A stretch of 64,000 nucleotides of DNA from Pseudomonadales bacterium (GCA_020632265.1 JACKFW010000001.1:140223-204222), one strand, 5' to 3'; counted from the first letter of the stretch, positions 21,672 through 64,000 are shown. Made by a program: numbers and translations. The notes: generated by a model not told the origin, from the sequence alone.

Positions 21672-21757
21672 GATCCCAGACTAGGGTTCACGACTCGCTT
21701 CACTCACATGCACTAGGAAGGTGTTTCGCATTCGCTCTACACTTTCCGTCGCGAACC
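21672..21757 (-). repeat. GC-rich structured repeat (family 1, copy A) beginning with an 18-19-nt copy of the tRNA-Gln 3' end
   Basis: gatcccagactagggttc. Conserved blocks gcactaggaagg, cattcgct and ttccgtcgcgaacc are shared with copy B. The ends GGTTCGCGAC and GTCGTGAACC can pair. Confidence 0.65.
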
Positions 21758-21785
21758 AAATAATTTCAATCTTACAATTCAAGAT

Positions 21786-21821
21786 CAAATAATTAACCAG
21801 CTTTCGCTGGTTAATTATTTG
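21786..21821. terminator. perfect 16-bp hairpin (caaataattaaccagc-tttc-gctggttaattatttg)
   Basis: Palindrome read directly. No clear U-tract. Lies between family-1 copy A and family-2 copy 2. Confidence 0.4.
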
Positions 21822-21852
21822 ATCCCGTACGTGGACAGTATTCGAACCTATT
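21821..21852. repeat. 32-nt dispersed repeat (family 2), copy 2 of 3: gatcccgtacgtggacagtattcgaacctatt
   Basis: Sequence identity to the copies at about 17270 and 22789. Confidence 0.7.
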
Positions 21853-21879
21853 TTGTACACACATGCTACAATCTAACTG

Positions 21880-22239
21880 ATGAAAAAAATATATGATGAT
21901 CTAAGTAATTCAGAAGAAGTTAATTCTTTTTTAAAAACTATTCCTTACCAAAACAGACGAGAGGCTATATTTAAAGCTAAAGAGAATCTAGAAGAGATAA
22001 CATTGAGGATATGGTTAGAAGAACTTGCTAATATATCAGAAAAAATTAAGAATAAAAACAACCTACAACCAAATCTACAGGGATGGCAAAATTACTTAAA
22101 ACTAGGCTTTTCAAAAGATAAATTTAGAAGAAAATACGGATTTGATGATTGGTCAACTAAATATAAAATGGAAATGTTTATTCAATATGAAGAAGATGAC
22201 TACAGAAAAAAAATGGTGATACTAAATTTTTACGGTTAA
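21880..22239 (+). CDS. hypothetical protein
   Basis: 119 aa. No motif. Confidence 0.4.
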   Translation: MKKIYDDLSNSEEVNSFLKTIPYQNRREAIFKAKENLEEITLRIWLEELANISEKIKNKNNLQPNLQGWQNYLKLGFSKDKFRRKYGFDDWSTKYKMEMFIQYEEDDYRKKMVILNFYG

Positions 22240-22367
22240 AAAATAAAAGTTTTTTTGAATATTACTTTGGAGGTGCTGGCATAAATCCAGAAATTTGGTG
22301 GGCAAAGAAGAAAAATATAAATCCAAACAGCCTTCTTGTTCATGCACTCACTCCAAAATCCTTATTA

Positions 22368-22697
22368 ATGGTAATAAGAACAGGAACAGTTGGAAGAGGA
22401 AGTTTTGATCAAGTCGCTATGAGCCAAGATAGAATAATATATAATTCTGGGTATGCAATTATTTTTCAAGCAAGTGACTTAGTGAAAGCTGGCTACTCAT
22501 TATTACCAATACAGGAAGTCAGTCGTGATTCACATATTCTGCAAGAATGGAGATCGCCTGTTGCAATAGATATTAACATAGCTCGTTTAATTGTACCAAT
22601 TTCTGATATACCTGACCACAAAAATGCTACTAAATCTCAAATTGCTAGAAGTTATTTTGGTGAAAAGTTCCTCAAAAACTTAAAAAGAATATATTAA
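22368..22697 (+). CDS. hypothetical protein
   Basis: 109 aa. No motif. Confidence 0.35.
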   Translation: MVIRTGTVGRGSFDQVAMSQDRIIYNSGYAIIFQASDLVKAGYSLLPIQEVSRDSHILQEWRSPVAIDINIARLIVPISDIPDHKNATKSQIARSYFGEKFLKNLKRIY

Positions 22698-22788
22698 TAA
22701 TTTTTTCTACCAAAAAAGACATTGTCCAACCTAGTTTTGTTACTTAAATTTAAAAATTAGATTGATATATAATGATATATTTGAAAAA

Positions 22789-22820
22789 GATCCCGTACGT
22801 GGACGCTATTCGAACCTATT
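22789..22820. repeat. 32-nt dispersed repeat (family 2), copy 3 of 3: gatcccgtacgtggacgctattcgaacctatt
   Basis: Sequence identity to the other two copies. Confidence 0.7.
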
Positions 22821-22831
22821 TAATAGTAAAA

Positions 22832-23221
22832 TCAACTGGAGAGGGATTTTATTACAGCGAGAACTGAGTCGTATTGTTCACTTGTAATATTTTTGCTGAA
22901 TCTGCCATTAAACCCACCAAACTTCAAACCGCCACCATTTTCATAATCAACAGAGTGAGTATCAATAAACATATAGGCTTTTGAACCATCAAGATATGTT
23001 ATGTCTATCCTTCTGTGTCCGACACTGTGATTATCCCTGATAAACTCTATTCGAAAATGATTTTTTTCTTCATCAGTATGTTCTACAGTTGCCTCTTGAT
23101 ATAATGGATGATTAGTATTAGTCCATATTAATTTTCCCCGAGCTATTATGCAATCCATGGCACTAATAAATTGTCCTGTATGTGGGTGAAATTGTTCCGT
23201 TCGATCGATTTCAGTTTTCAT
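22832..23221 (-). CDS. hypothetical protein (start moved to the internal ATG preceded by AAGGAG)
   Basis: The track ORF extends to 23290 into the family-1 repeat. The internal Met (MKTEIDRTEQ...) has a good RBS (aaggagaagagaatATG). Confidence 0.45.
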   Translation of the reverse strand: MKTEIDRTEQFHPHTGQFISAMDCIIARGKLIWTNTNHPLYQEATVEHTDEEKNHFRIEFIRDNHSVGHRRIDITYLDGSKAYMFIDTHSVDYENGGGLKFGGFNGRFSKNITSEQYDSVLAVIKSLSS

Positions 23222-23270
23222 ATTCTCTTCTCCTTCATTATATTTAAATGATATTATATCATTTAAATTT

Positions 23271-23371
23271 GATCCCGGACTAGGGTTCACGACTCGCCAC
23301 TATTTACACTTTCTGGATGTTGGCTCGCTTGCACTAGGAAGGCTCACTACATTCGCTTTCCGTCGCGAACC
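23271..23371 (-). repeat. GC-rich structured repeat (family 1, copy B) beginning with a 19-nt copy of the tRNA-Gln 3' end
   Basis: gatcccggactagggttc. Shares conserved blocks and the terminal pairing with copy A. Lies about 70 nt downstream of tRNA-Gln on the same strand. Confidence 0.65.
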
Positions 23372-23403
23372 TGTAGCCCAAACCCTCCAACCCGAATAAT
23401 ATT

Positions 23404-23432
23404 AAAAAAGATAGCAAGTGCTATCTTTTTTT
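23404..23432 (-). terminator. intrinsic terminator hairpin after tRNA-Gln (aaaaaagatagca-ag-tgctatcttttttt)
   Basis: 7-bp GC-poor stem flanked by A and T runs on both sides, so bidirectional. Confidence 0.55.
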
Positions 23433-23438
23433 ATTATG

Positions 23439-23509
23439 ATCCCGGACTAGGGTTCGAACCTAGGATAACAGTTCCAGAAACTGTTGTGATGCCACTTCAC
23501 TATCCGGGA
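23439..23509 (-). tRNA. tRNA-Gln (anticodon CUG)
   Basis: Manual fold of TCCCGGA-TA-GTGA-AGTGGCA-TCAC-A-ACAGT-TTCTGGA-ACTGT-TATC-CTAGG-TTCGAAC-CCTAG-TCCGGGA-T. Has the bacterial tRNA-Gln U1:A72 pair. CCA is not encoded. Confidence 0.85.
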
Positions 23510-48343: not shown

Positions 48344-48427
48344 CTAACCCTAAAGAAATTGATTACCAAAAAAAATTGATTAACTAAATTATCTATTTAT
48401 TAATAAAAAAATTAAACAGATTTGTAA

Positions 48428-48805
48428 TTATTTTTCTTTCTTATCTAAACGAAGACCCATATCTACTGGTGGAAACGTTAAATCTTGATTGGCGGGATCA
48501 GCAGCATCCAAGTCAATTCTTGCATTCTCAATTCTTTGTTCAAGCGGACCGAAGTTTTTAATAACTTCCTGTTGAATATTTTCAAAAATATTTTCGGGAG
48601 TTTTCTTTTTTGATCTTAACATCACAATCACAAATAAAATTAACAATGTAAGAACCACCAAACCAATAATAATAAAAAATTTTATACTTTTTTTTGGATT
48701 TTGATCTATTGGAGTCGGTTCCACTGGTAATTCAACATTCAGATCTTGAAAAATTGGTTCTTCAAAAGCAAATTGTGTTTGATTATCTTCTTGACTGTTA
48801 TTCAT
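48428..48805 (-). CDS. hypothetical single-pass membrane protein
   Basis: 125 aa with a central TM. Confidence 0.4.
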   Translation of the reverse strand: MNNSQEDNQTQFAFEEPIFQDLNVELPVEPTPIDQNPKKSIKFFIIIGLVVLTLLILFVIVMLRSKKKTPENIFENIQQEVIKNFGPLEQRIENARIDLDAADPANQDLTFPPVDMGLRLDKKEK

Positions 48806-48806
48806 A

Positions 48807-49730: not shown

Positions 49731-50443
49731 TTTGATAATTCTCTATTTCTTGCAAAAATAATTGCCTCATGAAGAGATTCAAAGGTTCCGGTATCTAACC
49801 ATTTCCCCTCAACTTGAGCTACATCTAATTTTCCTTCATGCAAATATAAATTATTAAGATCAGTAATTTCTAGTTCACCCCTTGAAGAAGGAGTTAAATT
49901 TAGAGTCTTTTCAATGACTGAGTGATCATAAATATACATTCCAGTTACTGCAAAATTCGATTTAGGGTTCTGAGGTTTTTCTTCTATTGAAATCACTTTA
50001 TTATTTTGATCAAACTCCGCTACTCCAAATCTTTCAGGATCAGTAACTTCTTTAACAAAAACTCTTCCACCAGATTCAAAGCTATTTATTGAGTCAGAAA
50101 AATTATCTTCATAAAGATTATCTCCTAAAATCAGGGTAACATTGTCATTGCCAATAAAGTTTTTCCCAATCAAGAAGGCTTGTGCTAATCCTTCGGGTTT
50201 ATCTTGAATTTCATAAGTGAACTTACAATCAAATTGACTGCCACTTCCAAGTAATTTCAAAAAATCACCAGCATGATCTGGAGCAACAATAATAAGAATA
50301 TCCTTAATTCCTGCACTTAACAATGTTTCAAGAGGATAAATGATCATTGGTTTATTATAAATTGGCAACAACTGCTTGCTAGTAACTTTAGTGAGTGGGC
50401 TTAATCGGGATCCTGACCCACCTGCTAAAATAATTCCCTTCAT
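49727..50443 (-). CDS. sugar-phosphate nucleotidyltransferase (RmlA/glucose-1-phosphate thymidylyltransferase-like)
   Basis: N-terminal MKGIILAGGSGSRLSPLT signature. Confidence 0.8.
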   Translation of the reverse strand: MKGIILAGGSGSRLSPLTKVTSKQLLPIYNKPMIIYPLETLLSAGIKDILIIVAPDHAGDFLKLLGSGSQFDCKFTYEIQDKPEGLAQAFLIGKNFIGNDNVTLILGDNLYEDNFSDSINSFESGGRVFVKEVTDPERFGVAEFDQNNKVISIEEKPQNPKSNFAVTGMYIYDHSVIEKTLNLTPSSRGELEITDLNNLYLHEGKLDVAQVEGKWLDTGTFESLHEAIIFARNRELSK

Positions 50444-50528
50444 ATTTCTCCTTTATTTATTTCACTCAATGTCATCACTTGTATCAATCATTACACCCTA
50501 GTTTAGCACTTTTATTAATAATTTGTAT

Positions 50529-50786
50529 TTAAAAAGTTAATAAAAATAAGACTGAACCAGCCAATAATGATACTGATAAATATTCAAAAATTACATGTCT
50601 GTGAAGTTTATTCATTTTTGAGTGCACCATAACCCCCCAAAAAAAATAAAAAGAGGACATAAAAATTATTAAGAATCTTTGAATATCTCTATTTGGCCAA
50701 TAATGTAAAAATAATAATGAAAAAATTAAAAGTATTAAAATTAAAACAATATATGCTTTATGGTGTTTTTTAAACTCTGCTATCAT
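50529..50786 (-). CDS. small membrane protein
   Basis: 85 aa with two or three TM segments. Confidence 0.35.
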   Translation of the reverse strand: MIAEFKKHHKAYIVLILILLIFSLLFLHYWPNRDIQRFLIIFMSSFYFFWGVMVHSKMNKLHRHVIFEYLSVSLLAGSVLFLLTF

Positions 50787-50788
50787 AA

Positions 50789-51805
50789 TTAGACTGCTCC
50801 TCCTTTAAAGAAAACAATTAGATAAGCTATAAAAATAAACAAAATGATATGAGCCAAATTTTTCCCCACAAGTCTTGAAGGTTTTTTATGTCCAATAATA
50901 AGAAAATCATAAATTAAAACGACAACTATTAAGAAAATAATGCTTAAAAAGAAAGCTTTTAATACGTGAAGTGGTGACATTAATATCCCTTGAGATAAAC
51001 TACCTTGCGGCACCGATGCAATTGCTAAAACATCATTTGGCGAAGAATTTTCCAGATCATTTGCATCTACTTCAATTACTTCTTGAGAATCAATTTCTAA
51101 TTCTTCTTTAGTTTGTGGTTTATTTACAACATTTACTGGAACAGGAGTATTTGTAACCACCGGCTTTGTTTCAGCTACCGTAACTGCAGGAACCTCAACG
51201 CTTGGATTTGAGTTAGATACAGATCCATCGACCAAAGTTCCAAACATTTGTACAACTAAAGTCGTTTCTGTCCCATTTAATTTTCCATCAACAACTGCTA
51301 ATCCTATATCTCTATATCTTGGATTCATAATATTTGCTCTATGAGTCGGTGAATTCATCCATGCAGAAATCATAGGTCCAGTGGAATCAAAATCTCTAGC
51401 CAAATTCTCTCCGGCAACTTTGTAGTTATAATTAACACTCTTTATAAAATCCCATGGTTCCTTGCCAGTGGGAGATGTATGAGCCCAATATTGGTTGTTA
51501 AACATATCTTGAGCTTTTGCTAAAGCGGCTTCCGACAAAACACCGTTATATGTTAGTTGCGCTAATCCTTGAGTTGCTCTCTCTCTATTCGTGCCCTCAA
51601 TTACTTGTGCAACTGTGATTGAAGATGCATAACCTAAAATACTACCTTGAGGCAAATTAATTGAAGAAACGATTCCAACTATTTGGAAAAAACCCAATGC
51701 AATCAGAGACATAAAAATCATTGGTCTAGGATGAAGTATTTTAGGTCGATGGTTATTAGACTTTTGCGGATGAAATAAATGCTTTAAAGTTTTTGTTATT
51801 TTCAC
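50789..51805 (-). CDS. CAP/SCP (YkwD-like) domain protein, membrane-anchored
   Basis: YWAHTSPTG...GENLAR CAP-domain signatures. Terminal TM segments. Confidence 0.65.
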   Translation of the reverse strand: MKITKTLKHLFHPQKSNNHRPKILHPRPMIFMSLIALGFFQIVGIVSSINLPQGSILGYASSITVAQVIEGTNRERATQGLAQLTYNGVLSEAALAKAQDMFNNQYWAHTSPTGKEPWDFIKSVNYNYKVAGENLARDFDSTGPMISAWMNSPTHRANIMNPRYRDIGLAVVDGKLNGTETTLVVQMFGTLVDGSVSNSNPSVEVPAVTVAETKPVVTNTPVPVNVVNKPQTKEELEIDSQEVIEVDANDLENSSPNDVLAIASVPQGSLSQGILMSPLHVLKAFFLSIIFLIVVVLIYDFLIIGHKKPSRLVGKNLAHIILFIFIAYLIVFFKGGAV

Positions 51806-51898
51806 TTTATTATCTATTAAATAATAATTTTCATTATGATAATAAATGTTTTTTTGTACAAGGGTTGAACTCTTGAGTAAAAATATTTTTTAATGATA

Positions 51899-53182
51899 TT
51901 AATATATATTTATATATCCTAAGTTATAAATAGGTGAATAATTTCCGGCTTGATCAAAAAACTTTATTGCAAAATATTTATTACCTAAATCTAAATTATC
52001 AATTAATATATTTTCATTATGGTCGGGATTAATTATCATTTGAGAGTCTTGGTATTTTTTGTGATTAGAAATTGCAATGACTTTGCTTTTTTTCCAATTC
52101 TCTTCACTTAATATATCATCATCTGAAACTCTAATTTGATATGAATTTTTGGAATTAAAAATTTGATTAACATTTTGAAGATTGGATTCTTTCGACGGAT
52201 AATCAAAAATGATATTTAATTGCAAATCTCCTTCAGCAAATAATTCAGCCCGTTCAAGATTTTTTGGAGAATTTAAGTCAACTTTGACTACTAAAAATTT
52301 TGATTCTTCAACTTTTTCCTGCGAATTAATGACATAATACTCAATTAAGTCATTTTCAAATGCATCATTGATCTTAAGAATATATGGACTTAAAATTTGA
52401 TAATGATGTTGAATAATTTTCCCTTCATTATTGGATTTATATTTAACAAAAATTTTTGAATTTGACGGCAATGCTTCAAAAGCTATTTGATCACCAATTT
52501 TTGCTAAAAATTTAGAAGTACTAATTTCTTTTAACATCAGCGATGGCGGATCCATTTCATCAAATGAATTTTGTGAAAAAAAATTAACAACAAAATGATT
52601 ATTATTTGAGTTAAAATTTTTTAAATTTATAAAACCTTGATTCCAAACTCCACTTTCTGAAAAATCATGAAATGCATACCTGTCATTTACTTTAACTATA
52701 AAATTTGGATCATCAAACCCATCTAATTTTTCTTGAGTTTCAATTTTATATTGAAATGATAAATATTGATTTTCAGTAGTATAAAAATTTTGAATATCCA
52801 TACTTGAATCATTTTTTGAAACTAATTCATCAATAAAATATATATGATCGTCTTTAATAATTTTCACAGTAACTTTTGTAGGCTCTGATTCAGCGCTCAC
52901 AAAACCTTCATTGTTTATGTAAAAGTTTTTAAAAGGGTTAATTTTACTGACCAAATTAACTAACTTTATATTTTCAAAATCTCTGAAATTATTTGGAGCA
53001 ATATTTTTAACAATATCCTTGATCTTTGAATCAAAATTTAATGGCTGATCAATATTTGAAGAACCAAGAACACTATCACTTAAATCTTCATTTGGTTCAT
53101 TATTCAACACAGCAGTAAATAAAAAAATTATAGTAATAACTAAAATTATTATGCAAAATATATATATAATTTTCTTTTTCAT
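51899..53182 (-). CDS. hypothetical secreted protein
   Basis: 427 aa with an N-terminal signal anchor. Confidence 0.45.
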   Translation of the reverse strand: MKKKIIYIFCIIILVITIIFLFTAVLNNEPNEDLSDSVLGSSNIDQPLNFDSKIKDIVKNIAPNNFRDFENIKLVNLVSKINPFKNFYINNEGFVSAESEPTKVTVKIIKDDHIYFIDELVSKNDSSMDIQNFYTTENQYLSFQYKIETQEKLDGFDDPNFIVKVNDRYAFHDFSESGVWNQGFINLKNFNSNNNHFVVNFFSQNSFDEMDPPSLMLKEISTSKFLAKIGDQIAFEALPSNSKIFVKYKSNNEGKIIQHHYQILSPYILKINDAFENDLIEYYVINSQEKVEESKFLVVKVDLNSPKNLERAELFAEGDLQLNIIFDYPSKESNLQNVNQIFNSKNSYQIRVSDDDILSEENWKKSKVIAISNHKKYQDSQMIINPDHNENILIDNLDLGNKYFAIKFFDQAGNYSPIYNLGYINIY

Positions 53183-53317
53183 TTATTGAAAATATTTTTT
53201 ATTAGTATGAAAGTAAACTATAATTATTGCTTTAAGCTTTATTTATGTGTTTGGTTTCCATTAAAATTTGGTTTTGTATCAAGTTAGTCTAGTTGATATA
53301 ATATGATTTTAATCAAA

Positions 53318-53389
53318 GGCCCCATCGTCTAGCGGTTAGGACACCAGGTTCTCATCCTGGCAGCCAGAGTTCGATTCTCTGTGGGGTCA
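53318..53389 (+). tRNA. tRNA-Glu (anticodon CUC)
   Basis: Manual fold: GGCCCCA acceptor; anticodon arm CCAGG-TTCTCAT-CCTGG; T-arm CAGAG-TTCGATT-CTCTG; 3' acceptor TGGGGTC; discriminator A. Confidence 0.85.
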
Positions 53390-53574
53390 CAATATAAAAA
53401 AAGATCCATTTATGGATTCTTTTTTTATATTGTGGTCGCATAGTTTGAAAAGCACTCCGCCGAGCAAAGCGAAGCAGAGTTCTGACGGAGAGTGCAAAGC
53501 ACCCTCCTAATGCAAGTGAACCATCCTACAGAAATCATAAATTGTGGCGAATCGTAGATTCTCTGTGGGGTCAC
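53385..53574 (+). repeat. 190-bp repeat R190, copy 1; begins inside the tRNA-Glu 3' end and ends with a second copy of the tRNA 3' 18-19-mer (gattctctgtggggtcac)
   Basis: About 95% identical to 55448..55637. Contains a terminator-like hairpin (aaaaaaagatccat-tt-atggatcttttttt) and a GC-rich segment. Confidence 0.8.
53396..53427 (+). terminator. intrinsic terminator after tRNA-Glu (A-run, gatccat-tt-atggat, T-run)
   Basis: Palindrome read directly. Also present, with a perfect stem, in R190 copy 2 at about 55459..55490. Confidence 0.55.
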
Positions 53575-53596
53575 ATTTTTGTTAAGAACACACTAA

Positions 53597-54097
53597 TTAT
53601 TCTATATTATAAATTTCATTCATCACAAAATGAAAAGCGTCACCAAATTTTTTAGGATTTTCCTTTAATTCTTTCAGTAACTGATCCCTTGAAAATCTTT
53701 CATAAGAATCAGATTCATGATTCAACACAGGTTCCTCATCGGAATATATTTCATAAACAATAAAATAATGGTTTTCTTTTCTTCCAATAACTTCTCTGTT
53801 GTAGATCTTCTTACCAACAAACTTAAAATCAAATTCTGTAATACCCAATTCTTCTTCAGTCTCTCTTCTTAATGCTTCTTCTTCAGTTTCACCAGACCGA
53901 ATATGTCCTCCAACAGGAGATACATACTGTCCAGCATCTTGTCTATCATTTGCTTGTTTTACTAAAATCCAGTTACCGTGTGAATCAATTAGTTCTGAAA
54001 TAATAACTCTATGTAGAATGCCTTTTTCATGACACTCTACTTTAGGACAATTACCTGTTACTTCATCTTTTGCATTTACTATGTCAACTATTTCCAT
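53597..54097 (-). CDS. Nudix hydrolase
   Basis: Nudix box GGHIRSGETEEEALRRETEEELGI. Confidence 0.8.
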   Translation of the reverse strand: MEIVDIVNAKDEVTGNCPKVECHEKGILHRVIISELIDSHGNWILVKQANDRQDAGQYVSPVGGHIRSGETEEEALRRETEEELGITEFDFKFVGKKIYNREVIGRKENHYFIVYEIYSDEEPVLNHESDSYERFSRDQLLKELKENPKKFGDAFHFVMNEIYNIE

Positions 54098-54123
54098 ATA
54101 TTATGTTCTAAATTTGCTTTCAA

Positions 54124-55335
54124 CTACTCAACTTTTACAAACTTCTTTTTACCCTCAAGAGTAACCTTCATAACTTTCATATAAATCAAAATAAAAATAA
54201 ATACTCCTACTGCATACAAAGCAGAAATTAGCAGTGCTGTTCTTAATTCAAAAGTATCAAATACATATCCAGCAACAATAGCTAATACAGATGCCACTAA
54301 AGCCTCATATACCTTAATACTTGAAAGAGTTGTTGCCCTAATCTTTGATGGTATATGCTTTTGTCCAAAACTATTTATTATTGCTTCTTTAAATGGCTCA
54401 GATACATAAAAAACCATTGCAGATAATAAACCTACAAAACCAAAAAACTTGCTCATTCCAAACAACCCTATTGCAAAAATAAACCAAGAAATAAACATTA
54501 GTTGGAACTCACTTAAATACTGTTTTAACTTTGCAAACTGAGAAACTACTATTGCTTGTAATCCATAAACAATTGCAACAAAAACTCCTAACCATTTAAC
54601 ATCAAATAGTTCTAAACCTAAAATGTATGGCTTATCAACTGAATGGATAAAGTAGTGGTGAAACCCATATAGCAATGAGACAAATAACGTAATAAAAAAC
54701 AACTCTTTTGAAATTAAAATATGCTTTAACCCTGCAAATACATTTAGCTCTTCTTCAACAATACTTTCTGAAGCTTTTTTTTCAGATTTCATAAACCAAA
54801 CTATTACAGCAGAAATGCAAAAGAATACTGCTAAAAGATAATACGGATAATTATGATTTATCGAAAACAAATATGCACCAATAATACTTCCTATAGCAGC
54901 TGCTATATAATTAACACTTCCACTGTAAGAAATAATTTCATCATATATTGAAACTTTTTTTTGAGAATCTAAATAATCATAAATATATGCTTCAAGAGAA
55001 CCAGAAATAAAAGAAATACCTAACATCCAAACTGCAGCAAAGAATGCAAACTGGATAGTAGTTTCTAAACCAGTCCAAATTAACGACGTTGCTGTCATTG
55101 TAATTAAACCAACAATAACACTAGCTTTTCTTCCAAATTTATCACCAAAAAAACCTGTTGGAATTTCAAACAAAAAACCAGCTACAGAAAACACTCCAAA
55201 AACTATGGCAATGTCTGCATAACTTAAGCCTTTTGCTAAGAAAAATAAGGCAATAATTACGTTGATTGGATATAATCCATAAATGAATTTATATAGTATG
55301 TATAAAAATAAGGTTTTGTCTTTGAGATATTTCAT
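54124..55335 (-). CDS. MFS transporter
   Basis: 12 TM segments and a GDKFGRK-type MFS motif between TM2 and TM3. Confidence 0.75.
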   Translation of the reverse strand: MKYLKDKTLFLYILYKFIYGLYPINVIIALFFLAKGLSYADIAIVFGVFSVAGFLFEIPTGFFGDKFGRKASVIVGLITMTATSLIWTGLETTIQFAFFAAVWMLGISFISGSLEAYIYDYLDSQKKVSIYDEIISYSGSVNYIAAAIGSIIGAYLFSINHNYPYYLLAVFFCISAVIVWFMKSEKKASESIVEEELNVFAGLKHILISKELFFITLFVSLLYGFHHYFIHSVDKPYILGLELFDVKWLGVFVAIVYGLQAIVVSQFAKLKQYLSEFQLMFISWFIFAIGLFGMSKFFGFVGLLSAMVFYVSEPFKEAIINSFGQKHIPSKIRATTLSSIKVYEALVASVLAIVAGYVFDTFELRTALLISALYAVGVFIFILIYMKVMKVTLEGKKKFVKVE

Positions 55336-55386
55336 CTATGTGATTTTATCATTAAATGTAACTACTTATATTTAGCAGTTGGTACA

Positions 55387-55445
55387 CAATATATAAGACG
55401 TAGCCTCTCGAGGTTTTCAAGAAATGGTTCAAACTGAGTTACCTT
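55387..55445 (+). repeat. repeat X, copy 1 (tatataagacgta..cctct..tggttcaaactgagtta.ctt)
   Basis: About 75% identity to 60361..60420. Immediately precedes R190 copy 2. Confidence 0.5.
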
Positions 55446-55447
55446 AA

Positions 55448-55637
55448 GGTCACAATATAAAAAAAGATCCATTTATGGATCCTTTTTTTATATTTTGGTC
55501 GCATAAATTGAAAAGCACTCCGCCGAGCAAAGCGAAGCAGAGTTCTGACGAAGAGTGCAAAGCACCCTCCTAATGCAAGTGAGCCATCCTACAGAAATCA
55601 TAAATTGTGGCGAATCGTAGATTCTCTGTGGGGTCAC
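55448..55637 (+). repeat. 190-bp repeat R190, copy 2, ending with a third copy of the tRNA-Glu 3' 19-mer
   Basis: Direct repeat of 53385..53574 with about 9 mismatches. Confidence 0.8.
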
Positions 55638-55783
55638 AAGTATCGTTTTGTTCAGTGCGACCCGTAAGGGTGCGCAGAAAATCCCGATAAAACCTACTAA
55701 TTTTTCTTCAACTTCTTCAAAATGTCGTTTTAGATCCTGTAATTATTTACAAAGTTTTTTATAATGATATACTTCGATGTACT

Positions 55784-57049
55784 ATGAATGTAGAAAAAAC
55801 TCCCAAACATATTATTCGAGCCGTAGTTGATACTCTCCAAGAATGCAACCTTAGATGCCAGTACTGTCACCCGGGTCATACCTGGGAAAAGAAACACTTG
55901 TCAGCTAATCTTATAGAACAAACACTTAGTGAGGCAGAGCAACGTGGTTTATTAGAAGTTACTTTAACTGGTGGAGAAATCACACTCCATCCCGAATTGG
56001 TAAAAATCTTGGAGTCAACTCAAGTTTTAGATCGTACAGTTTCAACTCTCATTACTAATGGCACAACCATGACCCCTGAATTAGCTAGACAGTTTCGTGA
56101 TTCTAACGTTTCCAGAATTTGTACCAGTATCGATGGCCCAGATGCCGGTACACATAACACATACAGGGGAAACTCATTTGACAGAGCAATAAATGGCTTG
56201 CGTTTACTGCAAGAAACGGGAAAACCAATTACCGTTATCACTGTTGCCCACCACAAAAACTACGAGCATGTTCTTGAACTAAGTAATCTCCTTGCCAAAG
56301 AAGGACTCGCGGCAGAACATCACATCTGTGCTCCATCATATTCTGGTACTGCCAAAGATAACTATGAAGAATTTAGATTGAGACAAGAAGAGTTTTTTGC
56401 TCTGCAACAAATGGTAGATGATTCATATCAGGATTTAAAAAACCAAGGATTGTTTGTTACTTTCAACTCTTTTTGGCCCGCTACTGGAGAAAGAGCAAAA
56501 ACCAATAACTCCAGGACAATTACTCTAGTTCAGTTAACAGAACAGCTAAAAGATTGCTATATCATCGTCCGTCCAAATGGTGACGTTAGGCTAACTGCTG
56601 CTGCATGGGGAAGAGAAACTATTGGTAATGCAGTAACGGGAAATCTTCATACTGACAGCGTTAAAATCGCTCTTAATCAAGCTGAACAAATATACAATCA
56701 AGGTTTAGTGAAGCAACTTCCAAGAGAGATCGAGGCTGTTCACAAATTTCATTACGGGAAAGATGTCAATCCTGCAATAACCAATAAGATACTTAGTGAT
56801 AAAGAAAGTGGTGCCGGTTTAGTTCAAATGGTACCAATTAAGCCACTCTCGGAGTCAGATCTGTTCCAGATACCTCTTTCCGAAGAACAAATGCTGTCTA
56901 TTGCGAGCAATCTCCAAATGCAACCAGACAGATACAGGCTTGTTAACATTGCTGGCAATTCATACGTACTGTTTGATAGGCTGACAACCCACATTACTCT
57001 TCTCAAGCCTGAGGAAGTGCTTATGATTGTTGGCTTAGGAAGTCACTAA
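55784..57049 (+). CDS. radical SAM domain protein
   Basis: CNLRCQYC = CxxxCxxC at residue 21, and TLTGGE glycine-rich SAM motif. 421 aa. Higher GC than its surroundings. Confidence 0.8.
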   Translation: MNVEKTPKHIIRAVVDTLQECNLRCQYCHPGHTWEKKHLSANLIEQTLSEAEQRGLLEVTLTGGEITLHPELVKILESTQVLDRTVSTLITNGTTMTPELARQFRDSNVSRICTSIDGPDAGTHNTYRGNSFDRAINGLRLLQETGKPITVITVAHHKNYEHVLELSNLLAKEGLAAEHHICAPSYSGTAKDNYEEFRLRQEEFFALQQMVDDSYQDLKNQGLFVTFNSFWPATGERAKTNNSRTITLVQLTEQLKDCYIIVRPNGDVRLTAAAWGRETIGNAVTGNLHTDSVKIALNQAEQIYNQGLVKQLPREIEAVHKFHYGKDVNPAITNKILSDKESGAGLVQMVPIKPLSESDLFQIPLSEEQMLSIASNLQMQPDRYRLVNIAGNSYVLFDRLTTHITLLKPEEVLMIVGLGSH

Positions 57050-57051
57050 AT

Positions 57052-58440
57052 ATGCCTTTAAAAGAAGTTGACACAAGACTTCTAAGGGCGCTAAGTGAAT
57101 ACAGAGCTTTTGTTAGCGCTCTAGCCATTGAAACTGGCCAGCGATCCTTAATTAGAGATATCATACTTAGCGAGCCTTCTACTACATCTGCTAAAATTAT
57201 GAAGGCTGTGGGGATTTCGGCCGAGGAGTTAGTAAAAATCTATCGAGACTTGCAAACGGATGAAGAATTTCAGTTAGCAGTCAACTCTCCTTACTATTCT
57301 CGCCGTCTCATGTTTAATGTCGCGCGAACAGTCGTGCATGATCTGGCCTCTGACTCTGATTATACTCAGAGATTGATCTCAGGAGATCCAGTATCTTCAA
57401 GAGTAGTTGAACTTCATACAACCAAAGGAACTTGTAACTACAACTGTGTGATGTGCTTATGGTCAGATAAAGGGGAACGTACCTATGACACAGCTCAGAT
57501 GAAGGGTTTTGGCTTAATGCAAACTGAGGAATGGAAAAACACTTTAGCAACCATCCGCGAGTTTGGTACCAAAGTAGCTGTTTTTTCTGGTGGAGGTGAA
57601 GTATTGCTGAATAAGGATTTTTTCAGATTGCTGGCGTTCTCACATTCGGTTGGTCTGAAAACCCAGCTCTATACTAGTGGATACAACATGACCCATCTTG
57701 AGGAGGAAGAGTGGGGAGAATTGTTGAACATGGATCGAATTAGATTTAGCATACACTCATCAAATGAGGGCACATACAATGATATTGTTAGTATGCCAGA
57801 ACACGCTCATGCACTCACTAAAGTTGACAACAACTTAAAGTTATTATTAGAGAAACGAAATATCGTAGGCTCCGATTTAAAAATAGGTATTGGATTCGTG
57901 ATACAGCCACTAAATACAATGCAGGTAGAGGATATTGTTGAGTTTGCAAAAAGGACTGGAGTGGACTATCTCAACATCCGCCGGGATGAAATTTTAGTAA
58001 CCAATCCTCTGGATCAAGAATCAGAAGTCGAGCTCAGAAAGCAGTTATTACGCATTAGACAAAACATTGTTAATGGCGTTTATGGGAATTTAGAAATTGA
58101 TTTTTCGGACAATTTAGTTGCATTTATGAACGAGGAGAAATACTTACTACCTCAAGTGCCACAATGTGTTATCAAACACTTTAGACCCACTATTAATCCG
58201 TATGGTCTGTGGAATTCGTGTGATCTTAAAGGTGAACCAATGTATGCGGATCCAGATTTTGTGATTGGTGATCTACATCAGGATGGTGTTGTAAAAATTT
58301 TGGCTCGCACACAGCAAACAACTATCCCTGCAGCATGTACAAGTTGTATGCCCAGTGGTCAAACTGGAAATGCTATTTTCACTAAATTACTTCAAGATCA
58401 CGCTTTGGGGATTGATTTTAAAGATCAGCCATTTTTTTAA
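57052..58440 (+). CDS. radical SAM domain protein with an N-terminal extension of about 110 aa
   Basis: CNYNCVMC = CxxxCxxC at about residue 128, and FSGGGE. Start lies 2 nt after the preceding stop, consistent with an operon. Confidence 0.8.
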   Translation: MPLKEVDTRLLRALSEYRAFVSALAIETGQRSLIRDIILSEPSTTSAKIMKAVGISAEELVKIYRDLQTDEEFQLAVNSPYYSRRLMFNVARTVVHDLASDSDYTQRLISGDPVSSRVVELHTTKGTCNYNCVMCLWSDKGERTYDTAQMKGFGLMQTEEWKNTLATIREFGTKVAVFSGGGEVLLNKDFFRLLAFSHSVGLKTQLYTSGYNMTHLEEEEWGELLNMDRIRFSIHSSNEGTYNDIVSMPEHAHALTKVDNNLKLLLEKRNIVGSDLKIGIGFVIQPLNTMQVEDIVEFAKRTGVDYLNIRRDEILVTNPLDQESEVELRKQLLRIRQNIVNGVYGNLEIDFSDNLVAFMNEEKYLLPQVPQCVIKHFRPTINPYGLWNSCDLKGEPMYADPDFVIGDLHQDGVVKILARTQQTTIPAACTSCMPSGQTGNAIFTKLLQDHALGIDFKDQPFF

Positions 58441-58897
58441 TCACGTCTTTTACCGTTTGACTTGTCGGTGTATTAGACTGATCGATATCACGAAAACTAA
58501 CTTTGACGACGTCCTTCCCGTTTCCCTTGGTCACAAATTTTCCTGATACTTCATAGATAAAATAGAATTTTCGGAAAGTTTTCCATGCCTGGTGAGATTC
58601 TAAATCATAAAATAATTCATTAGCAGAATAAATAAGATTATCTTCACGAATAGATTCATCAATCAGAACGAGGCCAGTCTCTTCCCAGAATTCCCTACGG
58701 AGCGCTTCTTTTTCGGTCTCACCCATTTCAACACCACCACCAGGAAACTCCCATAGGTTTGATTTCGAATCCTGAACCATTAAAAATAATCCACTCATTT
58801 TATACACAGCATAGACTGCAATACGCTGAATTAAGTCAGCCTCTAATACTTGGTGACTCTTGCCTTTGGCATCTTGAATTTGTATGAATGTATTCAT
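58418..58897 (-). CDS. Nudix hydrolase
   Basis: Nudix box GGGVEMGETEKEALRREFWEETGL. Confidence 0.8.
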   Translation of the reverse strand: MNTFIQIQDAKGKSHQVLEADLIQRIAVYAVYKMSGLFLMVQDSKSNLWEFPGGGVEMGETEKEALRREFWEETGLVLIDESIREDNLIYSANELFYDLESHQAWKTFRKFYFIYEVSGKFVTKGNGKDVVKVSFRDIDQSNTPTSQTVKDVIKKMADL

Positions 58898-59574
58898 TAT
58901 TGATTAGCCTCTGTTTTATGTATGCCTGTGGTGGTTTTCAAGAAGAAGTGATTGCCGTTCATTTCTAAAACAACGTAGGCTGTATTTTCAATTGAACCTT
59001 TTGTTAATTCATCAAAGGTTGAAAAACCAATTTTCATTAGCAAAGATTTCATAAGTGCACCATGAAAAACAACTAGAATTGAAAGACCCTTATAGATCAA
59101 CTCTAATTCTTTTATAAAGGTTAAAAAACGCAAGGCTGCTTCTTCAAAAGTTTCCATGTCTTCGCTAATTCGGAAGTTTACCTTTTCCTGCTGAGATAGT
59201 CGCCGAAAAGTATCTGGTACTATATTGTGTCGATCAAAAAAAATTTTGTGTAAGTTGCCGGCACTGGTTTCACGGATACGTTGAGAAGTGCTCACTGAAA
59301 GTTGGTGACGGACAGCAATAATCTCTCCTGTTTTTTGGGCTTTTTTAGCATCGGATGAAAAGACCGCATTCAAATGAATGTTTTGAAATTTTTCTGAAAG
59401 TATCGTGGCCTGCTCGATGCCCAGGGATGTAAGGTCGCTATCATGCCAAAGTGAGGAATCCTGACTTGCTCCAGCATCAGATAGGACATTAGTTTGAGAT
59501 CGAGCATGTCTAACTAAGTAAAATATGGTCGATGGTGGAAAATTTTGAGGAGATTTGTTCATAACTTGAAACAT
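58897..59574 (-). CDS. histidine phosphatase (phosphoglycerate mutase-like) family protein
   Basis: N-terminal LVRHARSQ (RHG-like) and C-terminal VVFHGALMK second-His motif. Overlaps the Nudix gene by 1 nt. Confidence 0.6.
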   Translation of the reverse strand: MFQVMNKSPQNFPPSTIFYLVRHARSQTNVLSDAGASQDSSLWHDSDLTSLGIEQATILSEKFQNIHLNAVFSSDAKKAQKTGEIIAVRHQLSVSTSQRIRETSAGNLHKIFFDRHNIVPDTFRRLSQQEKVNFRISEDMETFEEAALRFLTFIKELELIYKGLSILVVFHGALMKSLLMKIGFSTFDELTKGSIENTAYVVLEMNGNHFFLKTTTGIHKTEANQ

Positions 59575-59795
59575 TTTTTATTAACCAACAATATCCTTAT
59601 TATACTCTACCGCTATTATTAGTAAGAGTTTATATTCTTGTTTATAAATAATTTCCTAGTTGATTAGGTAGCTATTTAAACTAAAACTATCTTAGACCTA
59701 TAATTACTTGAGGTGAAAGTCGTGCGGTGAGAATCCCATTGCGGTCACAAATATCGTAAAGTTCAGCGCTTCTTGAAAGAACTCGTGAGGTAGGC

Positions 59796-60104
59796 TTGAT
59801 GAAAGCTATGGGAATGAAATCATTTGAGATACGAGATTTATTTATGACAGAATCTATGATTATGGGATTTTTTGGAGGAATAGGAGGAATAATTTTAGGA
59901 TATGTTTCGGGAAAAGTCTTAGGAATAATTCTTTCATCATTTGTTATTGCAAAGGGTCTAGGATTCATTGATGTGTCATATATTCCGTTTCTATTTGTTA
60001 CAGTAATTTTCTTTTTATCATTGATTGTGGGGATTATTACAGGAATATATCCAGCTAAAAGAGCTACGAAAATAAGTGCTTTGAATGCTCTTAGGTATGA
60101 ATAA
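59796..60104 (+). pseudogene. C-terminal fragment of an FtsX-family ABC transporter permease (gene remnant)
   Basis: Last two TM helices plus the canonical C-terminus IYPAKRATKISALNALRYE. The N-terminal roughly 300 aa are missing. TTG/ATG start with no upstream domain. Confidence 0.55.
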
Positions 60105-60360
60105 AGAAAGCTAATAAACAATATGCTTATATCTAATTAAACCATAACATATCAAAGTAATCCTTAAACATAGAAATATGCTTCAAGAATATTTGGAGTA
60201 TGATCGCCCAATACTAATCCAGCAAGTAAAGAGCCTAATCTAGTTTTTTTCTGCCGGCCATTTTTGACAAGAACTTTTAGTTAACTACAATATTTTTCAA
60301 GGCAGTGTCTGGCTATTGGTGTTAGTAGTGATAAATATTTTTTATTTCCTCTCCTGTCTC

Positions 60361-60420
60361 ATTATATAAGACGTAACTCCTCTAGCTCAGCTAAAAGTGG
60401 TTCAAACTGAGTTATCTTGG
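60361..60420 (+). repeat. repeat X, copy 2
   Basis: Shares tataagacgta, cctct and tggttcaaactgagtta with 55387..55445. Confidence 0.5.
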
Positions 60421-60534
60421 ATTCACCAAATTTAATTCACATAAAAATAATCTTATCGGGCTCTTCCTAAGACTTATCAAAAATGTTATACTTTTGGGTA
60501 TAATCTTAACTAAGTAACAAATAATAAGGTTTTT

Positions 60535-60729
60535 ATGATCAAAAAAAATGAAGGTCCAGCTGATAGAGCAATCAGAATAATCTTAGGCTTGACTTTAATA
60601 ACAATAGCCTATACACAACAAATCAACTGGTTATATATTGTAGGAGCAGTCGCCCTCATAACAGGTATAACTGGATTTTGTGGACTGTACACATTGCTAG
60701 GAAAAAATACCTGCCCTATGAAAAAATAG
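60535..60729 (+). CDS. small membrane protein, DUF2892 (YgaP TM-domain)-like
   Basis: DRAIRIILGL...GITGFCGLYTLLG pattern, two TM segments. 64 aa. Confidence 0.5.
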   Translation: MIKKNEGPADRAIRIILGLTLITIAYTQQINWLYIVGAVALITGITGFCGLYTLLGKNTCPMKK

Positions 60730-61045
60730 TTATTTTTTGACTCAAAATCTTGTTTAATTTCTTTGTCTTAGCAGAAAATAGTCTCTTTTATCCTAATTCA
60801 CATCATTTTGTTGCGCTAATTTTACTACTTCATCTAATTAAAAATCAAACACTGTATTAAATTCGTTAATTAATTTCTTATTATACTTAAATAGCATCAT
60901 TAACCAAAGAGTTCGAGATATTTAAACGTGGGGTCATAATTTAGTTGGTATATCAATATAAAAATGTATTAATGAACAATTAAATTTATCAAAAGGTGCT
61001 TCTTTATATTAGACAACATCACTATTAAGTCTTATAATATACCTT

Positions 61046-62353
61046 ATGGTAGAAAATGACAGAAGAAGACGCTTATTTACTTCGCTTATTGAAACAGGTC
61101 GGCGCTATGTAGAAGAAAGCAATACAGACATAGCTGTAGAACTTAGCTTAGAAGCATTAGTTGGACTTTTTGCGCTTATTACTGCCATAGAAGCAGGAAA
61201 AACACATCTTGTCTCTGTTAATGCAATTGCATTAGATAAATACATAGACAACCCACAGTTACTGCAAATTGGTAGAGAAAAATTAAATAATTTAGAAGCA
61301 GGTTTATTAGAACTCTCTGAATCTCTTAAAACCCTAAGTTCTGAATGGAGAAGAAATTATAGAAAATCAAGAACAGTGATGAAATCTCGAACTACAACTG
61401 ATTGTGATTCTAAGGGACACTGCACTACTAGTACAGAATTTTATACTGAAACTGAATACTATTGGGATGAACCAAATGAATGGACATCACTCGGACTAGA
61501 TCACAATACAATATCCAGTTGGCAAAATTCTATTAATTCTCAAATAAATAGCGTTAACTCTTCATACAATTCACTCCCAAACACCCCTACCTTCGTGGAT
61601 GGCTATGATACATACAGAGTTACGGCAACTCCACTAGATACAACTAAACGGAGCTTTATCACCACAATTGGCTTTGCGTCTGCATCTGTTGGTTTTGCGT
61701 TCTATGAAGAAGTCATCACCGCTCTCGCAAAATATTATGGAGGATATGACTCAATACTAAGAAAATTTGCAAATACAAGAGTTAAGCGAAGATCTTTCTT
61801 AAAATTTATTGCAGGCTCCTTCGCTATCGATAAATTAAAAGAATGGAATACAACATTTGCAAAAGAAAATTCTGGAGTTAAGGAAAAAATAGAAGGAGAG
61901 ATTAAAAGTACCATAAAGAATATTAAACTGAATGATGAATTAGCAATTCAAACACTACTTGGATCAAACATAAACAGCATCATTTATACACATAAAATTA
62001 TTTCAGAAATACTTGGTGCAGCACTAAATAATAACGGCAACGGAATTGAAGACTATGCAGTAATTAGACCATTACTAGATAATGTGGTTGATCAGAATCA
62101 AAATAGAGGAATCATTTTGGAAGCCTACACCAAAAATGGCAATACAACTGAAGTCTCACAAGAGTTAAAAGACATTGCTTCACATGTAAAAGCTGATAGG
62201 TATATCCAAAGCCTCACTGCAGAGCAACAATCACAAGCAACATGGAATGCCATTCTACAAGTTGTTATTCTAATTGGGGCGTTTACAGGAATTGCCCTTA
62301 CTGCAGAAATTGCACTCGTTGTCACAGATGAAGTCTACAGAAACTTTAACTAA
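61046..62353 (+). CDS. hypothetical protein
   Basis: 435 aa with an N/S/T-rich central region and hydrophobic segments. Confidence 0.45.
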   Translation: MVENDRRRRLFTSLIETGRRYVEESNTDIAVELSLEALVGLFALITAIEAGKTHLVSVNAIALDKYIDNPQLLQIGREKLNNLEAGLLELSESLKTLSSEWRRNYRKSRTVMKSRTTTDCDSKGHCTTSTEFYTETEYYWDEPNEWTSLGLDHNTISSWQNSINSQINSVNSSYNSLPNTPTFVDGYDTYRVTATPLDTTKRSFITTIGFASASVGFAFYEEVITALAKYYGGYDSILRKFANTRVKRRSFLKFIAGSFAIDKLKEWNTTFAKENSGVKEKIEGEIKSTIKNIKLNDELAIQTLLGSNINSIIYTHKIISEILGAALNNNGNGIEDYAVIRPLLDNVVDQNQNRGIILEAYTKNGNTTEVSQELKDIASHVKADRYIQSLTAEQQSQATWNAILQVVILIGAFTGIALTAEIALVVTDEVYRNFN

Positions 62354-62612
62354 TCTACTTTGTATACCTATACTGAGTACCCACACCAAGTTCTTGCACA
62401 TCTGTTGCAAACCCTTTATACAACCCCACCAGGTCTGCAATCAATTCGATCGGATTCGACAACGTTAGGGTCACCAAATTTTATTATCCAGATATAAGTA
62501 TTCAAGAATGTATTTTTTTTCGTCAGATTTCCAGGTTTAATTAGTTCTAATCCCTGTGGGTAGATTTTAAGTATCTCCAAACCAAAAATCGAAACTTGAT
62601 AACCCCTGTCGT

Positions 62613-63137
62613 ATGAGTATTAAGATCCTTTCAGCAATATATGAGACCTTATATCTAGAATATTATATATACATCTGTCATAATATTCCTATGCCAGAGC
62701 AAATAAATACTATTATTCCTACAAAAGATGAGTTAAATCTTCGGGAGCAAGAGCCTGAGGAAAGATTATTGGGGAGTCAGGTAAATAAACTAGCAACAAG
62801 AGGCCAAAGACTAGATTTTATTGAAAAAGCTGAATCAGATGCTTATGAAGAATACGATAGCGTACTTGTTAGAAAAGCGAATAAATTGCTTCTGAATCCA
62901 ATGTTAGAACCAATGGATAAAGAAAGAATAACTGCCCTTGTAAAAGACGCCACTCATTCCTTACAATTACTCGGTGCTGTTATTACCTCACTTGAAAATA
63001 AATTATCAGCCCCGTCAGAAAGAGCTGTTGTCAGCAATATGATTGATATTATAGAGAAATTAGTTTTAAAGGATTATAAAAACAGTAAAGAAATTTCTGG
63101 TACAGAAATTTATTCTCAAGACATAGAAACAATGTAA
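62613..63137 (+). CDS. hypothetical protein
   Basis: 174 aa. No motif. Confidence 0.4.
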   Translation: MSIKILSAIYETLYLEYYIYICHNIPMPEQINTIIPTKDELNLREQEPEERLLGSQVNKLATRGQRLDFIEKAESDAYEEYDSVLVRKANKLLLNPMLEPMDKERITALVKDATHSLQLLGAVITSLENKLSAPSERAVVSNMIDIIEKLVLKDYKNSKEISGTEIYSQDIETM

Positions 63138-63297
63138 ATCAATCTCGGAAAAGCTTTGTTTCCTGACGGGTTGCCAAAAGAAGTTGAAATAATTCCACAC
63201 GCACAAACTCTGTCTGGTCAAGGAAATATTTTCATACTCGTTGACAACAGATCAGGTTTTCCTCAAGTCAAATATATCAAAACTGAAATAAATAGCA

Positions 63298-64000
63298 TGA
63301 TCATAAAACGTGACCCTAATCTATTGAGAGAATTAAGCAGAGACTTCGATTTTCAATATAATAATGCAGATACTGAATTTAATATAGTAAGACCAAATGG
63401 GACAGCGCATGATGCAAATGCCATCAACAAAGTCATTACATTACCAAATGCAGTAAGGGCTATAGTAATGAATCAAGTCCTGGACTCACGAAATTTGTTA
63501 GATGAACTTAGCCTTGCAAATGAAGATAAACATATTTTTTTAAAAAACGCTGCTCAAGAATTAGCTTCTTTTTTAAAATTGTTCCTAACTATGTATAGTG
63601 ATCCCGGTACATTTCCAAAGGACTGGGGTTTAGAAGATAGTAGAGCGTTCAGCCCAGAATTTAAAGGAGTTGGTTTTTTCCCAAAAACCACAAATGATCT
63701 TGCACCAAATATTGGAATATATGACTTTACAGTTTTGGCTAGGAATACTTCATATGTCCCAACCATAGAAAAAAAATTTCTATGCAACATTCCTGCACTA
63801 TTGCTGTCAATGAGCGGTCATAGCGATTTACTTAGCGCGCTTACTGATCTCTCGCCAGCTGCTCTAAGGAGGAATGTTGAATATGGAGAATTCGCAAAAA
63901 TTTCATTTATATCTAGGCTTAAAGAACAGAAATTACAACTCAAATCAATATTTGAAGATATGGGATTTCCCGAATTACTCCCCGCACTTGAAGAAGCTTT
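63298..64000 (+). CDS. hypothetical protein, 3'-partial (runs off the window end)
   Basis: The frame is open from 63138 to 64000 with no stop, so it is absent from the stop-bounded ORF track. First ATG at about 63298, with a possible TTG at about 63167. Same frame as the preceding ORF. Confidence 0.35.

Follow-up and report, generated by a model that had tools for sequence, protein, structure and literature searches.

The 7.6 kb that follow the 3' end of a tRNA-Glu(CUC) gene in the 64-kb window (the whole stretch of DNA analysed, 64,000 nucleotides) can be read as a tandem array of three non-autonomous cassettes that arose by integration through a large serine recombinase (LSR). We place the probability of this reading, in which the array is a decayed or trans-dependent LSR-type cassette array in a small-genome bacterium of the candidate phyla radiation (CPR), at about 0.68. 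Unit A (53385-55453) comprises the first copy of a repeat, R190, genes for a Nudix hydrolase and a major facilitator superfamily (MFS) transporter (cassette 1), and a conserved right end, X. Unit B (55448-60426) comprises the second R190 copy, two radical SAM genes, a Nudix gene and a histidine phosphatase gene (cassette 2), a degenerate copy of the tRNA 3' end (att4), an FtsX remnant, and a diverged right end, X'. Unit C, which extends to 60936, holds a YgaP-like gene and ends in att*. Each unit ends in a half-site of the attP type, and none carries mobility genes. An earlier note on this DNA had described a nested genomic island reaching from the tRNA to 60420. Its view of integrase-less cassettes at a tRNA-Glu 3'-end hotspot stands, while its junctions, layout, and boundary are corrected here: X, X', and att* delimit three tandem units in place of a nest, and the outer boundary moves to att*, probably at about 60936. 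The pair of X repeats that the note placed around the second R190 and cassette 2 is real, and it brackets them because R opens and X closes each unit. The note lists neither att4 and att* nor two further R modules at a tRNA-Gln gene of the window.

An intact target tRNA gene stands at one end of the array (53318..53390, + strand; found by ARAGORN and by Rfam, with an Rfam score of 59.8 bits). Its last 18 nt, GATTCTCTGTGGGGTCAC, occur exactly three times in the window, at 53373, 53557, and 55620, and 100 shuffles yielded no match to this 18-mer even at up to 3 mismatches. The recurrences at 53557 and 55620, which the earlier note had recognized, are exact and form, together with a degenerate copy at 59731, the displaced 3' fragments of tRNA-Glu. 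The three 3'-end copies had been taken as the footprint of attachment sites. Two of the three exact 18-mers owe their presence to R190, which occurs twice and each time closes with the tRNA tail; they are a built-in terminus of R190 and not independent scars. We read as scars three half-sites that end in GGTCA or TTCA and stop at 55452, 60425, and 60936.

In the tRNA gene, the last 18 nt (53373-53390, + strand) form a left half-site of the attB type, GTTCGA-N7-TGGGGTCA, in which GTTCGA belongs to the T loop and TGGGGTCA to the acceptor 3' strand, with 7 nt between them. The right end of each unit shows the same arrangement with the tRNA motifs 5 bp further apart. X (55387..55453, +), the conserved right end of unit A of about 68 nt, is fused at GGTCAC to the second R190, and its attP-type half-site at 55427-55452 (+) reads GTTCAA-N12-TAAGGTCA. 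X' (60360..60426, +), the right end of unit B, has the half-site GTTCAA-N12-TGGATTCA at 60400-60425 (+); X' (60360-60431) shares 74-78% of its positions with X (55387-55458). The right end of unit C, att* (60886..60936, +), contains GTTCGA-N12-GTGGGGTCA at 60911-60936. X, X', and att* have the common pattern GTTCRA-N12-T..G.TCA. Written as GTTCRA-N12-TNRRDTCA, it has three matches in the window, each of them inside the array and on the + strand, where 0.17 are expected.

In the attachment sites of LSRs, the distal motif (that of the zinc-ribbon domain) lies 5 bp further out in attP than in attB (PMC3783163). By this rule, the tRNA tail is a B half-site, and X, X', and att* are P half-sites, that is, junctions of the attR type. 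The shift is seen at two tRNA genes of the window, as N12 versus N7 at tRNA-Glu and as N14 versus N9 at tRNA-Gln. A scan of species-representative genomes with the 18-mer gave 74 loci, nearly all from Patescibacteria/CPR, and spacers of 2 to 22 were scanned over 255 kb downstream of tRNA-Glu in 70 other loci. On the tRNA-Glu strand, a spacer of 12 has 7 matches and any other spacer at most 2; on the opposite strand, a spacer of 12 has 0 matches in the same loci. Among the 7 matches with spacer 12 are the outer ends of intact LSR elements in loci L064 (at a distance of about 4.1 kb from tRNA-Glu) and L023 (at about 4.8 kb), and those of inserts that lack an integrase in L049, L053, and L079 (two matches). 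Both types of right end recur outside the window: an 87.5% identical X closes other cargo (HAD and Fic genes) in L079, and att* is 82% identical over 51 nt to an att* in L070. That L079 reuses the R..X ends for different genes is an argument for mobility in the past.

Related genomes contain LSRs at this very site. Homologues of the neighboring CAP-domain protein are annotated as Pacebacteria or Woesebacteria, and the gene order of the window up to tRNA-Glu (CAP, NTP-transferase, RRF, M50 protease, DUF3048, SecDF) is common to two relatives, the syntenic loci L079/L070 (VFLK01000012) and L080 (FLOH01000256). A third locus, L008 (PFJN01000036), has a tRNA-Glu identical to that of the window. 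There, tRNA-Glu faces a convergent gene for a 525-aa protein (Resolvase and Recombinase domains), whose final 13 codons (VVTPQRIELWLPG*) overlap the tRNA gene in antisense, covering it from the anticodon loop to the 3' end; the signature of such an LSR would be a C-terminus in ..VTPQRIELWLPG. In L080, an LSR with a Zn_ribbon_recom domain lies directly 3' of tRNA-Glu and is followed by Prim-Pol/PriCT_1, an HTH_17 protein, SpoVG, and a DNA methylase; this insert is an intact integrative element. LSRs also end inside tRNA-Glu in the more distant loci L064, L058, and L023. According to PMC7192596, serine integrases are not known to use tRNA genes as targets, which makes the association of LSRs with tRNA-Glu itself unusual. 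The identity of the integrase, left open in the earlier note, can now be narrowed to a family on the basis of these relatives, while the window itself holds no such enzyme.

The DNA that follows the shared tRNA in L079, L080, and L008 is in each case unlike that of the window. In L079, an R module is followed by a HAD hydrolase and a Fic gene and closed by X, and a second cassette with a 265-aa gene is closed by att*. The LSR-bearing element in L008 also encodes a LOOT RNA (RF03000, 68 bits at a gathering score of 46.4; L008:2783-2899, + strand). Upstream of the tRNA, three relatives have genes of the Peptidase_S24-like and Peptidase_M73 families between the homologue of up427 and the tRNA (cf. 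L070 and L080). The window has neither gene in the corresponding stretch, 51899-53182, which suggests that the upstream flank of tRNA-Glu has been remodelled as well.

No Resolvase, Recombinase, Phage_integrase, or relaxase domain is found in any open reading frame (ORF) of at least 100 aa in the 64 kb, in agreement with the earlier note, which had seen no integrase, excisionase, or relaxase gene. A tblastn search of the window with LSR queries was negative, and neither a tyrosine recombinase domain (including IntI) nor an attI site next to the array was found in the window. Two right flanks in the array were considered as possible remains of such a gene. The flank of att3 (55638..55665, +) reads AAGTATCG-N4-GTTCAG. 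At att4 (59731..59775, +), the degenerate tRNA 3' end GAATCCCATTGCGGTCAC (59731-59748; 13/18 positions) is followed by AAATATCG-N4-GTTCAG. Both copies thus continue as AA(G/A)TATCG-N4-GTTCAG, and the same motif lies 3' of tRNA-Glu in L051. On the minus strand, the motif reads ..ALNKTILVTPQRIE, which may be the end of a lost LSR gene. As an LSR relic, this candidate was rejected: once the tRNA-encoded residues are set aside, no significant similarity of the minus-strand peptide is left, and the database search was empty. Only left half-sites are recognizable in the array; the GTTCAG motif in the right flanks of att3, att4, and L051 is suggestive as a right half-site. att4 (GAATCCCATTGCGGTCAC) keeps the register of a tail copy, from the T loop to the 3' end, and differs in the T stem and acceptor; it may be a tail copy from a different donor lineage or from another tRNA.

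We propose that the tRNA segment from the T loop to the 3' end would act as the left half-site of attB, with GTTCGA as the distal and TGGGGTCAC as the proximal motif, and that the left half-site of the element's attP would carry this pair of motifs with a spacing wider by 5 bp. The strands would be exchanged within or next to GGTCAC. Each integration would leave an attP-type half-site at the far end of the element (X, X', or att*), joined to whatever earlier stood 3' of the tRNA, and later insertions at the tRNA would have displaced older units outward. Since identity with the tRNA flank resumes at GGTCAC, the exchange probably took place at or beside the six 3'-terminal bases of the tRNA, a point that is located only roughly, by where the identity of the R190 copies begins on the left. 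With the integrase genes gone, the cassettes would be fixed unless an LSR encoded elsewhere acts in trans. A bolder version, which we consider only tentatively, takes the R..X and R..att* units as a family of non-autonomous cassettes in CPR bacteria, integron-like and anchored at tRNA genes, that are moved in trans by an LSR encoded elsewhere. R would then re-create the tRNA-tail landing pad or encode a structured RNA for the reaction, and either role would explain its conservation and its cognate match at tRNA-Glu and tRNA-Gln.

The first R190 copy (53385..53575, +; profile match with E=1e-45) forms the left end of unit A and consists of a terminator-like hairpin (53391-53434), a core (53435-53556), and the tRNA tail copy att2 (53557-53574). 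The second (55448..55638, +) forms the left end of unit B and terminates in att3 (55620-55637). The duplication had been reported in the earlier note and is real: the copies are 191 nt long and 97% identical, with 6 mismatches, and their identity sets in exactly at the GGTCAC of the tRNA end and stops directly past the 18-mer. At the six differing positions, the first copy has T (53418), G (53432), GT (53444-5), G (53488), and A (53520). Homologues are located downstream of att* in L070 (80-88% identity) and in L024/L081 (72%), and both end in the exact 18-mer, with CCA next in L024. R modules are accordingly known from three genomes, those of the window, L070, and L024/L081. A 24-mer from the R190 core has no match in the Genome Taxonomy Database (GTDB) genomes, IMG/VR, or the JGI metagenomes. 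A looser pattern of the 3' core leads back to the PFJN01 relative (L081 = L024) and to no other sequence, viral ones included. The 18-mer and the att3 flank have only two chance matches in IMG/VR, in GC-rich coding DNA.

A profile search with R revealed a second, small cassette array in the window, at tRNA-Gln (21672..23509, - strand). The tRNA-Gln gene (23438-23509, -) is followed by a hairpin, an R core, and an exact 18-nt copy of the tRNA-Gln tail (23271-23288). Next come three small ORFs without Pfam matches and att*Gln (21820-21850) with the +5 spacing, and then a further hairpin, a shorter R core, and a tail copy with 1 mismatch (21672-21689). The R cores of the Glu and Gln modules are homologous, and the terminal 18 nt of each module match the tail of the cognate tRNA, starting at the same T-loop position. 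The 5' half of the cognate T arm is also present in the R core, about 74-94 nt 5' of the tail copy, as CAGAGTTC or CTGAGTTC for Glu and as AGGTTC or TGGTTC for Gln. With both cognate halves present, R resembles a T arm whose two halves are separated by a conserved insert. Elsewhere in the window lie genes for a class I aminoacyl-tRNA synthetase of the Glu/Gln type (tRNA-synt_1c, 608-2044) and for a CCA-adding enzyme (39510-41204). These two enzymes would act on Glu/Gln tRNAs or on tRNA-like ends without an encoded CCA, and their presence may be a coincidence.

A 4-bp helix in R covaries (GGAG/CUCC, GGCG/CGCC, GGAA/UUCC) among the five sequences at hand, a number that keeps the structural evidence thin, and the fold of the whole tRNA plus R190 stretch has z = -6.2. 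Three ideas about R190 were tried and set aside. It matches no known RNA, as Rfam returns only the tRNA itself and chance microRNA-like matches on the hairpin, and the covariance model of the Parcubacterial RNA described below has no match in the window. Its reading as a tRNA interrupted by an insertion found no support: of the tRNA, just the two halves of the T arm can be recognized, the similarity of the 5' part to the tRNA is not significant (63, 452, and 869 of 2,000 shuffles scored as high), and ARAGORN is negative on the joined 'exons'. A helix between the tail copy and a segment inside R was likewise discarded, since the 10-bp pairing predicted for Glu shows no covariation in the Gln modules. 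The alternative named in the earlier note, that R190 is simply a conserved structural region flanking the tRNA, holds as far as conservation and linkage to tRNAs go; it does not remove the island. The position of R at the tRNA-proximal end of the units could stem from an excision at the tRNA site that took native tRNA flank along, from recombination of the Campbell type through R, or from a functional role as landing pad or RNA.

Other elements occupy the position 3' of tRNA-Glu in further loci. In Parcubacteria, the tRNA gene precedes a covarying hairpin, whose CUGC loop is conserved, and a structured RNA of about 95 nt ('type A'), for example at L039:3632-3727 (-); further loci of this kind include L006, L007, L010, L019, L026, L043-L046, L053, L065, L067, L072, and L075. 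The type A RNA has 22 predicted pairs, 18 of them with compensatory changes, and 93% are paired. Its covariation score is 0.70, compared with at most 0.14 in slid controls. A model built from 14 sequences detects 33 sites in about 30 of 72 loci. It has no Rfam match and is unlike the R190 of the window. A 'type B' insert of about 178 nt is found between tRNA-Glu and the native flank at L032:450-628, L037:2474-2651 (-), L021, and L056. It starts with a perfect antisense copy of the last 21 nt of the tRNA, interrupted by a CUGC-loop hairpin, and ends with a direct tail copy and CCA; in L032, the native hairpin and the type A RNA come next. The antisense tRNA tail is reminiscent of a primer-binding site.

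The cargo genes assigned by Pfam agree with the content given for cassettes 1 and 2 in the earlier note. Unit A encodes the Nudix hydrolase (53597-54097, -) and the MFS transporter (54124-55335, -). Unit B, for which NCBIfam was used as well, encodes two radical SAM proteins (55784-57049 and 57052-58440, both +), a second Nudix protein (58418-58897, -), and a histidine phosphatase (His_Phos_1, 58897-59574, -). The FtsX-type permease remnant (59796-60104, +) corresponds to the C-terminal 102 aa (Pfam profile positions 32-119 of 120), and no other part of FtsX is found in the window. This truncation and the degenerate att4 are signs of decay. No MFS pseudogene is found beside X'. Unit C encodes a YgaP-like small membrane protein (60535..60729, +; PF11127). 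As a defence system or a pathway, the cargo gave only generic matches below threshold (viperin-like or SPASM-like radical SAM; Nudix), and this assignment was dropped. No homologues of the window's cargo were found in the related loci.

Cassette 2 is a compositionally foreign block. Its four-gene core has a GC content of 38.7% and a GC content at third codon positions (GC3) of 0.31-0.35, while 4-kb windows of the background have a mean of 30.8% (sd 2.2, maximum 34.1) and GC3 values of 0.15-0.23. The GC contrast seen in the earlier note is borne out by both GC content and GC3.

Public assemblies from two samples recover 44600-53347, 53546-55638, and 56625-64000 at 100% identity; they cover neither 53347-53546 nor 55638-56625. 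One contig from an independent sample, which bears the copy-2 variants, is 100% identical to the window from att2 through cassette 1, X, and the second R190 to att3. Public contigs break in or near tRNA-Glu, with L001 ending at 53347 and L003 starting at 56625. Many public contigs end within about 130 nt of tRNA-Glu (L014, L017, L045, L068, L001), which fits strain-level heterogeneity or repeats that break assemblies. The contig L002, with a 30-nt terminal overlap and a period of 2,063, was considered as an excised circle and rejected, as it starts at the branch point of the repeat and bears the copy-2 variants. Because these R190 variants are the same as in the chromosomal junction, its ends mark a de Bruijn repeat boundary and not a circle.

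Several observations weigh against LSR integration as the origin of the array. The window contains neither an LSR gene nor a significant LSR relic, and the reading 'ALNKTILVTP' of the att3 flank is not significant and yielded no homologue. The far ends of the L008 and L080 elements, the closest two that are intact, lie outside the DNA covered, and the link between att* or X and LSRs consequently comes from the more distant L064 and L023. The earlier note had suggested a comparison with related genomes to find an empty site. They show different content at the same site, including an intact element, while a truly empty site, with the tRNA followed by the window's downstream genes, was not found among the loci. 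Composition singles out neither cassette 1, which is host-like with 30.8% GC, nor unit C. Repeats of 191 nt with 97% identity, as around unit A, are atypical for LSR recombination, and Campbell-type recombination or capture of R190 by aberrant excision is therefore needed in addition. The tail copy of R190 also lacks GTTCGA at the attB position (3/6 bases agree, by eye) and is for this reason a poor candidate for an LSR site; yet att3 and att4 bear right flanks of the element type.

Other explanations account for parts of these data. One is that R190 with its tail copy is a structured or tRNA-like RNA of the host, and that the repeats arose by segmental duplication and gene shuffling, not by site-specific integration. 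The conservation of R modules in three genomes (72% in L024, 80-88% in L070), their presence at two different tRNAs of the window, each with the cognate tail, the covarying 4-bp helix, the fold of tRNA and R190 (z = -6.2), and the clearly structured, different RNA in the same position in Parcubacteria all speak for an RNA. We nevertheless regard this explanation of the array as unlikely. It accounts neither for the half-sites of the attP type, with their +5 spacing, in X, X', and att*, nor for the LSR elements that occupy this site in relatives, the foreign GC content of cassette 2, or the reuse of X in L079; R itself has no Rfam match, its covariation is thin with 5 sequences, and the internal segment that pairs with the Glu tail shows no covariation with the Gln tail. 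As an account of R alone, a host RNA is compatible with LSR-type integration of the cassettes.

Slightly less probable still is that homologous (Campbell-type) recombination or unequal crossing-over duplicated R190 and inserted cassette 1 with no dedicated recombinase. The 191 nt of 97% identity around unit A are long enough for RecA-type recombination, cassette 1 has a host-like GC content, and the 2,063-bp unit was recovered as a repeat-bounded contig in another sample. Such recombination covers at most the last step of unit A and not units B and C or the tRNA-Gln array. Moreover, X stands exactly at the junction with attP-type geometry, the identity of R190 sets in precisely at GGTCAC, and L079 has the same R..X layout with other cargo. 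That the arrangement is an artefact of assembly or binning, with repeats collapsed or strains joined, seems very improbable to us: public contigs do break in or beside tRNA-Glu (L001 at 53347, L003 at 56625), and the junction stretches 53347-53546 and 55638-56625 lack independent recovery, but the contig from att2 to att3 reproduces this part independently at 100% identity with the copy-2 variants, and the layout recurs at tRNA-Gln and in other genomes.

As LSR-type cassettes, units A-C resemble cis-mobilizable elements (CIMEs). CIMEs are flanked by att sites, lack recombination and transfer genes, can lie in tandem at one site, and are in principle excisable by the integrase of a related element. 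They are defined relative to integrative and conjugative elements (ICEs) with tyrosine or serine integrases and demonstrated mobilization, as in the accretion-mobilization of ICEs and integrative and mobilizable elements in Streptococcus. Units A-C are likewise att-flanked, tandem, and free of mobility genes; unlike for CIMEs, a helper, an excision product, and a transfer function are not shown for them. With integron arrays, they share small, promoter-poor cargo stacked at one site, a conserved recombination end, and an enzyme outside the cassettes. The differences are that no IntI or attI is present, that the ends are attP-type LSR half-sites and R modules in place of attC hairpins, and that the array is anchored at a tRNA gene.

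Tandem arrays of integrative elements at tRNA genes, some with members whose integrases are degraded or missing, are well known (PMC7192596). The array described here has in common with the Islander/TIGER tRNA arrays (PMC7192596) a tRNA at one end, a site that is restored so that elements stack, variable and partly foreign cargo, and degraded or missing integrases. In contrast to these, relatives have an LSR as the integrase, with a reading frame that extends in antisense into the tRNA gene; none of the three units has an integrase; and the units have conserved non-coding ends in common, with R to the left and X or att* to the right. The LSR attachment sites of A118/LI, Bxb1, and phiC31 (PMC3783163) share the distal motif shifted by +5 bp and a length of about 20-25 bp per half, whereas here only left half-sites are found, the window lacks the enzyme, and the long R190 identity is not a feature of LSR systems. 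New here are the pairing of serine integrases with a tRNA in CPR bacteria, attP-type half-sites that are legible as scars, cassettes with shared non-coding ends, and a cognate-matched R module at two tRNAs.

CPR bacteria (Patescibacteria) have tiny genomes, and the routes by which they gain genes are poorly known. The R module, which is conserved, present at two tRNAs, and carries the exact cognate tail, is an unexplained element in these genomes. If our reading is correct, serine integrases that target a tRNA gene and overlap it with their frame would be a repeatedly used means of gene transfer in CPR lineages. The 5-bp rule for attP and attB would then allow LSR junctions to be called purely computationally, even where the integrase is missing, and natural sets of LSR, attB, and attP would be candidate genetic tools for uncultured bacteria that are hard to engineer.

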